Source: a virus | DNA: 11,944 bases | UHGV virus genome: UHGV-0306691 | Reading direction: 5' to 3' (one strand) | Shown here: piece after piece, positions 1-10,436 of the stretch | How positions within the stretch are numbered: position 1 is the stretch's first letter | Layout: every line of letters starts with the position of its first letter | Notes under the pieces: model-generated | The model's input: the letters and a program-made list of their open reading frames with translations, nothing else | Database searches by the model: none | What the model was told of the DNA's origin: nothing | Translations under genes and position numbers: made by a program

Positions 1-263
1 GGGGGATTACCAAAGGCAGCACCTTTAAGCTCCGCAAGACGTTCAGACCAGTCATGCGCCAGCGCGTTGTCTTCCGCAGTGTAATAAGCGGCACATTTGG
101 CGTTATCACCATCAGTGAACAGATCCAGAACAAACGGGCCAAACAGGGTGTTAATTCCCCAGAAAATGTTGTCCGGCGTGCGCCACTGATCGCCCACTTC
201 CTTCAGTTCATGGGCTGGTTTGTTCCGCAGCTCCACCAGCGCCTGGCAATATTTATTACTCAT
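1..263 (-). CDS. Phage Dam-type N6-adenine DNA methyltransferase, N-terminal part (gene continues beyond window start)
   Basis: Reverse-strand translation from ATG (complement of 261-263) gives MSNKYCQALVELRNKPAHELKEVGDQWRTPDNIFWGINTLFGPFVLDLFTDGDNAKCAAYYTAEDNALAHDWSERLAELKGAAFGNPPY..., with the W-x-TP motif and the (D/N)PPY catalytic motif of N6-adenine MTases. Start ATG overlaps the stop of the upstream gene (TAATG). No stop in window, so absent from the ORF track. Confidence 0.6.
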   Translation of the reverse strand, partial: MSNKYCQALVELRNKPAHELKEVGDQWRTPDNIFWGINTLFGPFVLDLFTDGDNAKCAAYYTAEDNALAHDWSERLAELKGAAFGNP

Positions 264-751
264 TAAGCCCCCACGTAATTCCCTGACAGATACCACTCTT
301 CACCCGATGCAGCGCGCTTGCTGCTTTTCCGTAAGCACCGCTCACGATGCGCCAGAAAATTGTTTCGTTCTGGCTGGGAGTGGCTTTCACGGAATGCCGC
401 CATCCACACCGTTGCAGCACGACGGTATAAGCCCCTGGACTCCAGTTCTTCCGCCTGGCGGGTCAGGCACAAAATCACCCGCGGGTCGTTAGTGCCGACA
501 TAGAAATTGCGCACAGGTCTGGTTTCACGAACTGGTTGTGGTTCCGGCTCCTGCGCTCTCTCAGTCAGGCGTGGGAAATGTCTGCGTGTATCTCCTTCAC
601 AACGGTGAGCCACACGCCCACTCTGACGTAACTTGCTTGCTGACTGCAGAACGCGCTGCCGTGAGTAACCAGCAAAAGCATCCGCAATGTCTCCGGAAGT
701 ACACCCCGGATGGGCTTCAATGAATTTCTGAACTTCATTCAAAAGACTCAT
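263..751 (-). CDS. Putative transcriptional regulator, N-terminal winged-helix-like region and C-terminal PerC-like motif (162 aa from ATG at 751; ORF track extends to 757)
   Basis: ORF 263..757; internal ATG at 751 is preceded by AGGGGG with 5-nt spacing, 2 nt after the O-like stop. C-terminal segment AEELESRGLYRRAATVWMAAF resembles the PerC/Pch family motif (E-x-[KR]-G-L-[WY]-R-R-A-A-x-x-W) as I recall it. Sits where lambda has P. Confidence 0.45.
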   Translation of the reverse strand: MSLLNEVQKFIEAHPGCTSGDIADAFAGYSRQRVLQSASKLRQSGRVAHRCEGDTRRHFPRLTERAQEPEPQPVRETRPVRNFYVGTNDPRVILCLTRQAEELESRGLYRRAATVWMAAFRESHSQPERNNFLAHRERCLRKSSKRAASGEEWYLSGNYVGA

Positions 752-753
752 GA

Positions 754-1746
754 TCACCCCCTGAATCCTGCCGGGATCTGGCTGTAGTCCACGTTGTCGT
801 AACTGGCTTTGAAGTACGGGTCTTCATGTTTTTCTGTGTGCGTGCTGACGGACGGCGATAAGCGCAGGGAAAGCTCATCCCATTTTTCCCGCAACTTCGA
901 CGGGCTGAGCACGTTACGGCACCAGAACGGATCGCGGCTGACGCGGCTGTACATCTCGCAGATTTGTTTGTGAGTACGACCATCCTGCACACACATCAGG
1001 CGAATTTCGTTTGCCCATGCTGTCCAGTTCGGTTCTTTGGGACGAACCACCTCGCCGTCACATTCGGCGGCCTGCTCGTACAGGGCGATGATTTTTTTCC
1101 AGAGCCACTGTGCGCAGGTCAAATCATCCTGCGTTCCCCACTGGCGCTTTTTAGGGCTGAATACAACCGCATCAGGATGGCGAGTTAAAAACTCCTGTTC
1201 AGCCGTTTGCGTGTCCGGTTGCGAAGCGTCCGGACGAGAAGAGGTTTTATTCTCTGTAGTAATCTCTGTTGTATTCTCTGTAAGATCATTGGGCCATTTT
1301 GACCCGATGACAGCGTGTCGTTTTGAACCAATGGATCGTGTCATTTTGCGCCCATCCATCAGGTCACTTTGACCCGATGGAGAAGTGCATTTTGACCTGA
1401 TGGATTCGTTCACTTTGACCTCTTCTAAAAGCTCACTTTCATAGTTGATCGTGTAGAAGTTGGTCATGTCACGCTTCGATTTATTGAGTTGCTCGCGACG
1501 CAAAACCCCAAGTGATTTCAGGCTTGCAAATGTGCGTTTCAGAGTGGACTCTGACCAGAACGGAAACTGCTCCAGCCACTGTTCTGTCGTGTTATAAACC
1601 CAGCGAATTCCGCCATGCTCAGTGCCTGAATTCGTTTCATTCAGCCAGTAATGAAGCTGCTGCAACACAATTGCCTCATTCAGACCAATACGGCATGCAA
1701 GATCACGATTTATCACAATGGGCTGGGATGTCATTAACAGGCTCAT
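754..1746 (-). CDS. Replication initiation protein, lambda O-like (ori iterons inside the coding sequence)
   Basis: 330-aa ORF, RBS GAGGT 5 nt upstream of ATG. Position after cro/CII-like genes and six ~17-bp direct repeats at ~23-bp spacing inside the gene (1295-1420) are the hallmark of lambdoid O genes. Low-complexity linker with codon repeats (TENTTEITTEN). Confidence 0.75.
   Translation of the reverse strand: MSLLMTSQPIVINRDLACRIGLNEAIVLQQLHYWLNETNSGTEHGGIRWVYNTTEQWLEQFPFWSESTLKRTFASLKSLGVLRREQLNKSKRDMTNFYTINYESELLEEVKVNESIRSKCTSPSGQSDLMDGRKMTRSIGSKRHAVIGSKWPNDLTENTTEITTENKTSSRPDASQPDTQTAEQEFLTRHPDAVVFSPKKRQWGTQDDLTCAQWLWKKIIALYEQAAECDGEVVRPKEPNWTAWANEIRLMCVQDGRTHKQICEMYSRVSRDPFWCRNVLSPSKLREKWDELSLRLSPSVSTHTEKHEDPYFKASYDNVDYSQIPAGFRG
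1295..1420. repeat. Origin of replication iterons: six direct repeats, consensus ~CAyTTTGACCnGATGGA, period 23-24 bp
   Basis: Copies start at 1295, 1319, 1342, 1365, 1388 and 1411 (last one partial): cattttgacccgatga / cgttttgaaccaatgga / cattttgcgcccatcca / cactttgacccgatgga / cattttgacctgatgga / cactttgacc. Followed by a moderately AT-rich stretch 1421-1500. Lies inside the O-like gene, as in lambda ori. Confidence 0.65.
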
Positions 1747-1915
1747 GACCGACCTCTATTTCCCTGAATTTACGACGAAACTGTTCGAGCGGACTGAAGC
1801 ATTCATGTTCATAGCCTTCACGGAGGTAGATAACCCGTTGTGTTTCCGGCTCCCAACGAATGACTCTGACGGGCACTCCGTAGTGATCTTTGAACCAGCG
1901 GTTAACTTGTCGCAA
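1703..1915 (-). CDS. Small hypothetical protein (70 aa, TTG start); alternative to or overlapping with 1756..2094
   Basis: Strong SD (AAGGAG, 6-nt spacing) before TTG at 1915. Product [46 protein letters not shown]... has a globular-looking composition and resembles small prophage proteins I recall as DUF4222-like (uncertain). Overlaps the O-like start by 44 nt and the 112-aa ORF by 160 nt in another frame. Confidence 0.3.
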
Positions 1916-2094
1916 AGGACTGTCTCCTTCTGCCGGTTGAAATCACCCACAGCCCACTCTGCAAATCTGTGGGTTACAATTTCCCTGTCACCTGGTACAT
2001 TCACTGCATAGCAATACTCCACCTTCGCTTTTCCACCCGGTACAGGAAGCGCAATCAGTTGCGAGCGACGGTAGTGTGTTGTTAAACTGTTCAT
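1756..2094 (-). CDS. Hypothetical protein (112 aa), translationally coupled between the CII-like and O-like genes
   Basis: ATG overlaps the stop of the 196-aa gene (ATGA at 2091-2094) and ends 10 nt before the O-like ATG. N-terminal half looks protein-like; C-terminal third (S/N-rich) looks like out-of-frame sequence, so the true coding frame here is unresolved. Confidence 0.35.
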
Positions 2095-2681
2095 GCGTTA
2101 GTTTCTCCACAACCAGAAGCAATCGACGCCACGACGCCCGGAGCTGCACACTCGCGGGCGTCATTACTTTCTGAAATGCAAAAAATTTTGTAGACCAGTG
2201 CTGCATGCTCCTGGAGCTTCGAAATTGAGAGATACAGTTCGTCGTTAATTGCTGTCTTCTCATGCGGTTCCACTACACCGTCTTCGATTGCTGAACGAAT
2301 CTGTCTGGAATAACTGCCGATCTGTTCAATGACTTCCAGCAGACGCTGGTTAATATCGGCGTTGTCCACATCCTCGACGTCAGGAAGAGACACAAAGACG
2401 CCATTTGCAGACTGCGCCACAGCGTCAGCAATGAAGTGAGTGCCACCAGCACGTTGCAAAATCATTGCCCATCCCAGCGGGAAAATCTGATCACCATCGG
2501 CACGAAGGCGGTTAAATAATGCGTTCTCTGTTACATCCAGCCAATCAGCTGCTTCAGCGTAACCACCCGGCAACGTTGCGATAGTTTTTCTGACAGCTTT
2601 CACGTACCACTCAGGCTGTTTTTCTACTTTCCAGTGATGCTTACCCACGGCTATCTCCTTAAAACTGTGGTTACTTTCCAT
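2091..2681 (-). CDS. CII-like / YdaT-family phage regulatory protein (196 aa)
   Basis: Immediately downstream of the cro-like gene with an 11-nt overlap, the position of cII in lambdoid phages and of ydaT after ydaS in Rac-type prophages. Family assignment is by context and general resemblance only. Confidence 0.45.
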
Positions 2682-2919
2682 CTGATAAGTCTTTAATCTT
2701 TTGAAAAATATCTGGACGTAATTTTTCTTTTGATACGCCAGTGGTCATTTCAATGAATATCGAAAGCTTTGCAGGGGGACGCTTTTCTCTGTTCAACCAG
2801 TTCCATACATGTTGTTGCTTTACTAAACGACCACTGCTGGCTGTGAGCTTCCGAGCCAATTCTGATTGACCACCAGCCAGAGCGATTGCCTCTGATAAGG
2901 CTAATTGCTCAGGTGTCAT
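2671..2919 (-). CDS. cro: Cro-like HTH DNA-binding protein (YdaS/Cro family), 82 aa
   Basis: Divergent from the cI-like gene across the operator region. AGGAG SD 6 nt upstream of ATG. Product contains IALAGGQSELARKL HTH-like segment and C-terminal LRPDIF motif typical of YdaS/Cro-like proteins as I recall them. Confidence 0.65.
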   Translation of the reverse strand: MTPEQLALSEAIALAGGQSELARKLTASSGRLVKQQHVWNWLNREKRPPAKLSIFIEMTTGVSKEKLRPDIFQKIKDLSDGK

Positions 2920-3056
2920 AGCTTTCTCCTATCTGTAAGTAGTAAAGTTGTTGATAACTTCGATTATACAACTACAACAACTTTTATCACAACTTTTAGA
3001 TGTTGGAAAGCTAAAACATAAAGTTGTAACCTCAATAAAAACGAGGGGGATAGGTT
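2920..3056. promoter_or_regulatory. OR-like divergent promoter/operator region between cro-like and cI-like genes
   Basis: Leftward promoter: perfect TATAAT on minus strand (complement of 2963-2968) with TTGTGA -35 at 18-nt spacing (complement of 2987-2992), about 37 nt upstream of the cro ATG. Repeated operator-like motifs: TAAAGTTGT at 2943-2951 and 3019-3027; AAGTTGTTGATAACTT (2945-2960, palindromic ends); ACAACTTTTAGATGTTG at 2989-3005. Confidence 0.55.
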
Positions 3057-3743
3057 GTGAAAACATTGGCAGATAGACTAAAAAGCGAAAGAGAAAAAGC
3101 AGGAATGAGTCAGGCGCAACTAGCTGAAAAAATTGGACTTTCACAACAATCCGTAGCAAAAATCGAGAATGGAGAAACTCAACAGCCTCGGAAAATTAAA
3201 GAGATTGCTAAAGTGTTAGGGGTTTCTCAAAAGTGGTTGCAATTGGGCATTGAGGATAACGCGTCTTTCCCAGACCTTGTTGTAAAGGAGGCTGAAAGTA
3301 CAGCATTAGATCCTGACATTTTTGCAAACATTCCTGTCCTGGATGTCGAGTTATCAGCGGGTAATGGATGTTTGGCTGAAATAGTTGAATCAACTGTAGA
3401 CTGGTTCCCGCTAAGAAGGATTGATTTAAGAAAAGCTGGTGTATGTGTCTCCAATGCAAAGATCGTAAAAATTTGGGGTAATAGTTTACTACCTGTACTT
3501 AACAATGGAGATTTTGTTGCTGTTGATGTTTCCCAAACAGTTCCTATTCGTGATGGGGATCTTTATGCTATACGTGATGGCGTATTACTTAGAGTTAAAA
3601 TATTGATCAATTTACCTGACGGTGGTCTGATTCTAAGAAGTTTCAATAAAGATGAGTATCCAGATGAAATACTCACCTTCGAAGATAGGCGTTCCAGAAT
3701 TCACGTTATAGGTAGAGTATTCTGGTCATCGCGCACTTGGTAA
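3057..3743 (+). CDS. cI: cI-like prophage repressor (N-terminal XRE-type HTH, C-terminal LexA/S24 peptidase-like autocleavage domain)
   Basis: 228 aa, GTG start after GAGGGGG. HTH segment MSQAQLAEKIGLSQQSVAKIENGE; C-terminal domain with G-N-S (GNSLLP) and downstream Lys (LRVKIL) in the arrangement of the S24 Ser/Lys dyad. Divergent from the cro-like gene. Confidence 0.85.
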   Translation: MKTLADRLKSEREKAGMSQAQLAEKIGLSQQSVAKIENGETQQPRKIKEIAKVLGVSQKWLQLGIEDNASFPDLVVKEAESTALDPDIFANIPVLDVELSAGNGCLAEIVESTVDWFPLRRIDLRKAGVCVSNAKIVKIWGNSLLPVLNNGDFVAVDVSQTVPIRDGDLYAIRDGVLLRVKILINLPDGGLILRSFNKDEYPDEILTFEDRRSRIHVIGRVFWSSRTW

Positions 3744-3983: not shown

Positions 3984-4076
3984 CAGTAACGAACAGGCAG
4001 GACGCCCACGAAGTAGCCGCCGGTGGCGTATGAATGACCGGATGATTCGTTAAATACTATGTGTAAGAGAGCGCAA

Positions 4077-4280
4077 ATGAACCGTTATTTCACATGCTCG
4101 TTTTGTGGCGCAAACGAGCTGCAGGCAAAAAAAATCATCGCCAAAGGCGGAAAAGATGAAGTTGCTATCTGCTCTGAGTGCGTAGTCTTGTGTGTCGGGG
4201 CATTAATCAATATCAGCACAACTATTCAGTTCACACCAAATGAGAATGCGCCTTTAGATGCGCGGAAATCTGGAGGTTAA
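4077..4280 (+). CDS. Small protein with ClpX-type C4 zinc-finger (ClpX N-terminal zinc-binding-domain-like), 67 aa
   Basis: CSFCG-x18-CSECVVLC matches the ClpX ZBD signature (E. coli ClpX: CSFCG...KLIAG...YICDECVDLC), including the K-[LI]-I-A-[GK] segment. ATG at 4077 preceded by AAGAGAG; first gene after the pL-like promoter. Confidence 0.6.
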   Translation: MNRYFTCSFCGANELQAKKIIAKGGKDEVAICSECVVLCVGALINISTTIQFTPNENAPLDARKSGG

Positions 4281-10196: not shown

Positions 10197-10436
10197 ATGT
10201 TCAGAGTGATTTACCCTAACACCTGGTACGTCGACCACCACGGCACTCCCTGCAAAATCCTGCGTTCCACTCACAACAAAGTTCACTACATCCGAAAAGG
10301 CAGAACATGTATCGCCAGCATGTTCCGCTTTAATCATGACTTTGAACCTGTGAATAAAGCTGACGCAGATCGGATAGCTGAAGAGATCGAAACAGCAGAA
10401 CACATTAAGAAGTTACGTGCCATACGCAGGAAATAG
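10197..10436 (+). CDS. Hypothetical protein (79 aa)
   Basis: ORF in operon orientation with a weak SD (AAGG). Basic C-terminus. No family recognised. Confidence 0.4.
   Translation: MFRVIYPNTWYVDHHGTPCKILRSTHNKVHYIRKGRTCIASMFRFNHDFEPVNKADADRIAEEIETAEHIKKLRAIRRK

Follow-up and report, generated by a model that had tools for sequence, protein, structure and literature searches.

Do the short repeats inside one gene of the virus genome UHGV-0306691 serve the peptide that they encode, or do they mark a place where prophage replication begins? The stretch analysed here (11,944 bp, hereafter the window) comes from a lambdoid E. coli prophage of the SfII / SfIV / mEp460 / CPS-53 type and represents its early region. 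Judging by sequence and structure model, the product of its gene 754..1746 is a replication initiator composed of an N-terminal winged helix, an origin-encoded linker and a C-terminal domain. A first-pass annotation of this DNA had interpreted the repeats as a replication origin, built of six direct 17-bp iterons with a 23-bp period, within an O-like gene. According to our analysis the array represents, with a probability of about 0.8, the initiator-binding part of the prophage replication origin, embedded in the region that codes for the linker of the initiator. Comparison speaks for the origin: third codon positions in the repeats are conserved, the repeats and an adjoining AT-rich tract are exchanged together with the N-terminal domain (NTD, or N-domain) in both directions, and the same layout recurs in distant elements. 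The elements concerned are:

754..1746, minus strand: initiator gene, an open reading frame (ORF) of 330 aa.
1295..1427, minus strand: iteron array of six slots with the coding-strand core GGTCA-AAR-TG(Amc).
1295-1311: slot 1, 2 mismatches to CAYTTTGACCNGATGGA.
1319-1335: slot 2, 3 mismatches to CAYTTTGACCNGATGGA.
1342-1358: slot 3, 5 mismatches to CAYTTTGACCNGATGGA, weak.
1365-1381: slot 4, 0 mismatches to CAYTTTGACCNGATGGA.
1388-1404: slot 5, 0 mismatches to CAYTTTGACCNGATGGA.
1411-1427: slot 6, 4 mismatches to CAYTTTGACCNGATGGA, weak.
1355..1381, no strand assigned: 27-bp near-perfect palindrome on slot 4 and its left flank, TCCATCAGGTCA-CTT-TGACCCGATGGA, with arms complementary at 11 of 12 positions.
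1248..1283, minus strand: three tandem 12-mers, on the coding strand ACAGAGAATACA, ACAGAGATTACT and ACAGAGAATAAA, registered by Tandem Repeats Finder (TRF) and a repeat finder.

All six slots expected from the first inspection are present, but one of the distances between them is longer than the rest (24, 23, 23, 23 and 23 bp), and the array ends at 1427 instead of 1420. If up to three mismatches are allowed, CAYTTTGACCNGATGGA matches the window five times, always inside 1295-1404, while shuffled windows contained 0.20 matches on average and none of 200 shuffles reached five. TRF registered the 23-bp period at 1364-1421, and the repeat finder gave five in-register copies and a sixth one. Four slots follow the 17-bp consensus well, but those starting at 1342 and 1411 are degenerate and match its left half alone, and the part common to all six is a 10-bp core CAYTTTGACC (GGTCAAARTG on the coding strand) or its near copy. 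It is this core, rather than the full 17-mer, that is conserved in relatives. The logo, GGTCA-AAR-TGAmc, is a semi-palindrome around an A-tract with a weaker TGAmc arm; complementarity of the arms is 5/5 in one slot, 4/5 in two and 2-3/5 in three. A seventh slot considered at 1434-1450 was discarded, since the core is not kept there in relatives. No exact cores were found beyond the array in the complete 42.9-kb genome of mEp460_4F5, and the genome-wide number of cores with one mismatch was 8 versus 7.1 expected by chance; the signal consists in clustered exact copies, not in the overall count.

The repeats are not uniformly direct. Among the five matches to CAYTTTGACCNGATGGA one (1355-1371) lies on the opposite strand, within the palindrome that also holds slot 4. 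The GGTCA/TGACC arms of this palindrome are complementary at all five positions, and an equivalent was found in relatives L005, L009 and L015. The palindrome may be a high-affinity dimer or nucleation site, distinct from the direct repeats. It also recalls dimer-bound operators of iteron plasmids, which favors another interpretation, namely that the array is bound by the initiator but is mainly regulatory (titration, handcuffing, autoregulation or a transcription roadblock), while replication starts elsewhere in the phage. Plasmid iterons are engaged in both initiation and copy-number control (PMC5397158; PMC3401445), cloned iterons of the lambda origin inhibit phage replication (PMC3349717), and in SPP1 a second gp38-bound site is thought to stall forks (PMC6316719). 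However, the complete genome of mEp460_4F5 contains no second cluster of cores or 12-mers, the array directly adjoins a conserved, least stable AT-rich repeat tract typical of an unwinding element, and the analogues with the same layout, i.e. lambda, pSK41 and SPP1 oriL, initiate intragenically (PMC7466680, PMC5703833, PMC6316719). We therefore consider a predominantly regulatory array unlikely and retain the initiator-binding part of an origin as the preferred interpretation.

The AT-rich tract 1248-1283 has a GC content of 0.33, the lowest within the initiator gene, and no other 36-bp duplex of this gene is as unstable (-41.3 versus -51.1 +/- 3.5 kcal/mol). It comes after the iterons in the coding direction, and the same polarity is characteristic of lambda, where the AT-rich tract lies downstream of the repeats. 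In the complete mEp460_4F5 genome the 12-mer motif is present in three copies versus 0.11 expected, with none elsewhere. Probably, though with less certainty than for the array itself, this tract is the unwinding element of the origin.

Selection acting on these sequences was estimated using one-genome-per-species contigs and phage records, from which ten genes with N-domains 53-100% identical to that of the window were taken (sources: E. albertii, E. ruysiae, Citrobacter, Enterobacter, Raoultella, Izhakiella and Trabulsiella). All ten retain six slots at the same gene offsets and with the same core. In the codon alignment, third codon positions showed a mean pairwise identity of 0.52 for the N-domain, 0.82 for the iteron cores and 0.95 for the 12-mer tract, and in 20000 resamplings of N-domain third positions neither 0.82 nor 0.95 was ever reached. 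As read from this alignment, the repeats are conserved at the level of DNA and not at the level of peptide. This is hard to combine with the idea that, lacking a function as DNA, they arose as a by-product of replication slippage or of a peptide linker of low complexity, even if the encoded linker is hydrophilic and in part repetitive (SIRSK, SIGSK, VIGSK; TENT, TEIT, TENK) and the equivalent peptide of pSK41 is dispensable (PMC5703833). The repetitive linker noticed from the start is real for the three slots in frame 1, which encode the similar peptides SIRSK, SIGSK and VIGSK, but the other slots lie in other frames, so that the peptide repeat is a partial side effect. Along the array the slots fall in frames 2, 1, 0, 2, 1 and 1, and since 23 bp is not a multiple of three and the period thereby spreads them over all three frames, no peptide repeat can account for the slots. 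Besides the third-codon positions, better conserved than in the structured N-domain, the by-product explanation is contradicted by TP21-L and L016, where a short repeat with a 10-11-bp period rotates through different reading frames within a single gene, and by the persistence of cores across phyla while the encoded peptides differ. It is strongly disfavored.

In the course of phage recombination the repeats follow the DNA-binding domain of the initiator. The parts relevant here are:

1251..1740, minus strand: exchangeable origin-specificity block (N-domain, iterons and 12-mers), delimited by the SfII/SfIV and L009 comparisons.
1423..1746, minus strand: part of the gene that encodes the DNA-binding N-domain (about aa 1-108), whose winged helix has the RepA_N / DnaD-NTD type of fold.
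754..1242, minus strand: C-terminal domain (about aa 169-330) of the YfdO / PHROG 2357 type, the presumed host-replisome recruitment module.

SfII and SfIV are about 97% identical to the window in positions 260-1250 and 1741-2653, with no similarity between these segments. Their initiators have the C-terminal 160 aa in common with that of the window, but their N-domain is different (Pfam HTH_36, E 4e-11), and so is the array, which has a 15-bp period and about five copies of the coding-strand unit TCAAAATCTGACSCR. Flanks and C-domain that are about 97% alike, combined with another N-domain and another array, uphold the early suggestion that the window represents a distinct initiator-origin specificity class. 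The exchange also went the other way: relatives from Citrobacter and Enterobacter combine the window-type N-domain and repeats with a different C-domain, and L009-L014 retain the N-domain, the six slots and the 12-mers of the window with a Phg_2220_C C-domain instead, the similarity of L009 to the window being confined to positions from 1248 upward. Judging by these alignments, the mosaic joint at about 1248-1250 was used in both directions, and a second junction lies at 1740-1741. In total, the same N-domain family is paired with C-domains of the YfdO, Phg_2220_C and DnaB_2 types.

These comparisons also bear on the assumption that the repeats are bound not by the N-domain of the initiator but by some other protein, for instance a host factor or a CII-like or PerC-like regulator. 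A CII-like gene and a gene for 112 aa (1756..2094) are adjacent and could be co-inherited with the array. Nevertheless, in SfII and SfIV the array differs while the neighboring genes stay unchanged (about 97% identity), and therefore the repeats vary in step with the N-domain only; in distant phages this N-domain is still paired with repeats, although the neighbors are wholly different. Binding by a different protein thus appears very improbable, and the initiator N-domain remains the favored reader of the array. As separate observations, the repeats of SfIV (L002, 2124-2198) and SfII (L004) overlap into GTCA...TGAC dyads followed by A-rich stretches, and the stretch GTCAAAAT is common to the repeats of the HTH_36 class and the iterons of the window, despite N-domains of different Pfam families.

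The initiator itself matches PHROG 391 ("replication initiation O-like", E 9e-102) and, over aa 2-170, PHROG 6493 ("DnaD-like helicase loader", E 3e-35), and is 98% identical to "Primosomal protein I" of mEp460_4F5. Identity with DnaT, to which this RAST label points, was rejected, as it was backed by none of the searches run. The structure model contains one winged helix, after which come a disordered linker and a helical C-domain; the N-domain model (predicted local distance difference test, pLDDT, 85.7) is a winged helix with the fold of RepA_N / DnaD-NTD. The repeats occupy the linker-coding region between the winged-helix N-domain and the C-domain, and their intragenic placement agrees with what was initially proposed. 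Likeness to RepA_N lies in fold and architecture and not in sequence. No match to the whole initiator was found in Pfam at E <= 0.01 or in NCBIfam, and searching Pfam with the N-domain at E <= 1 gave just sub-threshold Slx4 and Cdc6_C, with PF04492 absent. Searches of sequences in the PDB with the single protein and with a profile returned nothing useful (the best match being TFIIE, E 0.3), and 4PTA and 4PT7 were not recovered by the profile. Rep_3 (WH1-WH2) is not matched either, the initiator having one winged helix instead of two. Since Pfam and NCBIfam assign the protein to no family, the epithet "O-like" is not claimable by homology: it suits function, layout and the PHROG 391 label, but there is neither a Phage_rep_O match nor a P-like gene. 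The C-domain weakly resembles DnaD-CTD or G39P and belongs to a type restricted to Enterobacterales. The annotation of the complete mEp460_4F5 genome lists no helicase, loader or primase, from which one can assume that the C-domain must recruit host machinery. The initiator is the sole evident replication protein of this phage type.

Several facts weigh against an origin at this place. Two of the six slots are degenerate in the window, DnaA boxes and sites for IHF are absent near the array and their window-wide counts are at chance, and the 12-mer tract is surpassed in AT content within the window, whose intergenic stretches are less stable. The N-domain has no sequence-level tie to RepA_N, DnaD_N or Phage_rep_O, and the NTD of DnaD itself does not bind DNA (PMC7145576). 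Over short evolutionary distances the N-domain and the repeats would be co-inherited simply because they adjoin each other. In the literature searched there were no experiments on binding, unwinding or initiation for this N-domain family and no experimental work on the origins of SfII, SfIV or mEp460.

Assuming that the array is the initiator-binding part of an origin, initiation may be pictured as follows. After prophage induction the initiator would be transcribed from a pR-like promoter. Its winged-helix N-domain would bind the GGTCA-AAR-TGAcc cores spaced by 23 bp, i.e. about two helical turns, probably as dimers and probably nucleating at the palindrome 1355-1381, to give a wrapped complex like the O-some of lambda. 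The strain would be relieved by opening the adjacent 12-mer tract 1248-1283, one strand of which is possibly held by the initiator in a sequence-specific manner, as TrfA and RepE hold their 13-mers and 8-mers. Finally, the exchangeable C-domain would recruit the host helicase or primosome, because the phage encodes no helicase, loader or primase of its own.

The genetic environment of the initiator consists of the following features:

3057..3743, plus strand: cI-like repressor gene.
2963..2992, minus strand: pR-like sigma-70 promoter upstream of the cro-like gene (promoter scan, 10/12 consensus match).
2671..2919, minus strand: cro/YdaS-like gene.
2091..2681, minus strand: CII(CP76)-like gene.
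1756..2094, minus strand: 112-aa gene of unknown function, matching PHROG 1170 (function unknown).
263..757, minus strand: PerC/YfdN-like gene, directly downstream of the initiator gene and overlapping its stop codon.

A transcript from the predicted promoter would cover the cro, CII-like, 112-aa and initiator genes, and hence the origin. An integrase is located at the far end of the window. Searches of the window for Rfam families and tRNAs found neither, which leaves an RNA- or tRNA-based explanation of the repeats without support. In the early-left region the 73-aa ORF 4059..4280 (plus strand) encodes a ClpX-type C4 zinc finger (Pfam zf-C4_ClpX, E 1.4e-10). RefSeq features under the match to 700-1800 include a "DUF4222 domain-containing protein" adjoining the initiator, while in the window Pfam DUF4222 is found only in ORF 10197..10436 (plus strand) and not in 1756..2094 (minus strand); the RefSeq annotation may refer to a different ORF or start site.

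Among known origins, the closer analogue in fold and iteron style is the RepA_N plasmid replicon (pSK41) and not lambda. [quoted passage not shown] The NTD of pSK41 RepA binds Rep boxes in the center of its own gene, the origin-encoded linker is dispensable and the C-domain is host-specific (PMC5703833); RepA_N iterons have a semi-palindromic structure that converges on a poly-A tract (PMC7145576). In the window, too, iterons are central in the initiator gene, encode the linker and are semi-palindromic around an A-tract, as RepA_N iterons are described in PMC7145576 and PMC5703833, and, similarly to RepA_N, with its exchangeable, host-specific C-domain, the NTD and the origin move as a unit. 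In the natural chimera pPR9 about 500 bp (NTD and origin) were replaced by a pfam13730 NTD with the C-domain kept (PMC5703833), which parallels the difference between the window and SfIV. Unlike RepA_N, neither the window protein, even at E <= 1, nor 44 family members match PF06970; the element is a lambdoid prophage with six sites in strict 23-bp phase and conserved tandem 12-mers, and its C-domain is of a different, Enterobacterales-restricted type.

With lambda the window shares the gene order cI, pR, cro, cII, initiator and specificity classes formed by exchange of the N-domain together with iterons. The iterons of lambda are unrelated in sequence to those of the window except for a TCAAAA stretch. 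Further differences from lambda are the lack of Phage_rep_O (PF04492) in the initiator, the absence of a P-like helicase-loader gene downstream, where a PerC/YfdN-like gene is found instead, and an AT-rich tract made of sequence-conserved 12-mers. As in the lambda type, including the Stx phages 933W and P27 with six iterons, at least four phased repeats and an AT-rich tract lie between the N- and C-domains. The origins of lambda and Stx phages are situated centrally in the O gene, with repeats about two helical turns apart and an AT-rich tract (PMC7466680), just as here.

[quoted passage not shown] Its product, G38P, which was compared by motif, has a C-terminal DDYLRPSTLF matching DYLRPQTLF in the Phg_2220_C domain of L009. 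As a homologue of the N-domain G38P was ruled out (hhalign probability 0.2%). SPP1 has its own loader G39P and helicase G40P, while the prophage type of the window has neither. With the plasmids F (RepE) and RK2 (TrfA) the window is united by phased iterons of about 22 bp adjoining an unwinding element with short tandem repeats. The elements of RK2 and F contain tandem 13-mers or 8-mers, which are bound as single-stranded DNA by the iteron-bound Rep, and both activities are needed for melting (PMC10602881). Unlike the window, however, these plasmids have a Rep with two winged helices and an origin outside the rep gene.

The N-domain belongs to a large family. Its relatives were found in 111 records of phages and 90 of plasmids, the latter mostly phage-plasmids of about 40 kb, and an exhaustive profile search collected representatives of 16,119 clusters formed at 50% identity (of 12,769 at E <= 1e-10), many of which contain the N-domain twice in tandem. 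None of the 44 members tested matched a Pfam model. The layout was the same in all distant members inspected (Bacillus, Staphylococcus, Pseudomonas, Burkholderia, Bacteroides, Flavobacterium and Deferribacterales): the N-domain is followed by semi-palindromic repeats of 21-23 bp and then by 2-4 tandem repeats of 10-12 bp. The arms of the iterons are lineage-specific around an A/T center:

Bacillus sp. L016: iteron core GTTCA-AAA-TGAAC.
Staphylococcus phage 96: iteron core GGACA-AAA-TGGCC.
Flavobacterium phage: iteron core GTGCA-GAAA-TGCAC, as read from the sequence.
Flavobacterium and Bacteroides phages: consensus iteron core TTGCAA-AA-TTGCAA.
Burkholderia phage BcepMigl: iteron core CGCCGA-AT-TCGGCG.

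In several lineages both arms have changed symmetrically, as would be expected of a site that is read by a dimer and co-evolves with its reader. The initiator gene of the distant phages heads the replication module and is followed by genes for a helicase loader, a DnaB-like helicase, a DnaC-like loader or a primase-helicase; the first position was registered in phages 96, AF, BcepMigl, elemoE and SPP1. Some members deviate in architecture. L019, L020 and L021 (Deferribacterales and a Proteobacteria metagenome-assembled genome, MAG) encode proteins of about 790 aa with two tandem N-domains, after which come 5-10 iterons of 21-bp period and a long C-terminal part that contains Cys-rich motifs, and L019 has a weak, sub-threshold match to sigma-70 region 4. 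In the contigs L007 and L008, whose labels are Veillonella parvula and Bacillota MAGs, the prophage initiator is of Escherichia type and its N-terminal region is 75% identical to that of the window; these labels probably reflect a binning error rather than a real host range.

Conservation of the 12-mers across phyla is the most unusual point of this origin. Clusters of CAGAGAnTA were found in 7 of 14 diverse family genes versus 0.0005 in shuffles; in Pseudomonas, Bacillus and Deferribacterales relatives the iterons are followed by tandem copies with a 10-12-bp period, sometimes in other reading frames, and single copies are present in Staphylococcus phage 96, L020 and L017. ACAGAGAnTAC is preserved nearly letter for letter across E. 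coli, Pseudomonas, Staphylococcus, Bacillus and Deferribacterales, while iteron arms and C-domains diverge freely. Judging by these alignments, the conserved entity in the tract is DNA, and its conservation is deeper than that of the iteron arms. Only tentatively can one propose that ACAGAGAnTAC, in 2-4 copies with a 10-12-bp period, is a conserved origin element of this very large initiator family.

The design is also frequent. The 201-bp origin region (window 1240-1440) was detected in 1,836 of 5,426 complete E. coli genomes, i.e. in about a third, as two common alleles, one with at least 95% identity (226 genomes) and another with 80-90% (1,613), the latter being consistent in sequence with the HannyBb / E. 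albertii type. In many E. coli genomes the C-domain is joined to other N-domain blocks. Among the RefSeq E. coli matches listed, the gene is almost always a "hypothetical protein" and once a "phage O protein family"; phage records name it "DNA replication protein O" or "primosomal protein", and none of the records inspected annotates an origin.

An origin inside the initiator gene is an already known arrangement (phage lambda, some plasmids). Less ordinary are the size of this N-domain family, which escapes coverage by Pfam and NCBIfam, its frequency and the 12-mer shared across phyla. The order N-domain, iterons, 12-mers would give a rule by which origins could be located and replication-specificity (incompatibility) classes predicted for thousands of phage-plasmids and temperate phages across phyla, and exchange of this block explains the mosaic joint at about 1248-1250 in the evolution of lambdoid phages. 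A RepA_N-like design, thought to be rare in Gram-negatives (PMC7145576), is thereby extended, at the fold level only, to common enterobacterial prophages, which raises the question of how a phage with one replication protein and no loader or helicase recruits the E. coli replisome. The unwinding of the origin can be approached experimentally through the deeply conserved 12-mer. If its proposed role is true, ACAGAGAnTAC would be read, probably as single-stranded DNA during unwinding, either by an invariant surface of the N-domain (e.g. the GLNEA...QQ..W...FPFWS motif) or by a universally conserved component of the host replisome, and would constitute a portable "unwinding and loading code" for phage origins across phyla.

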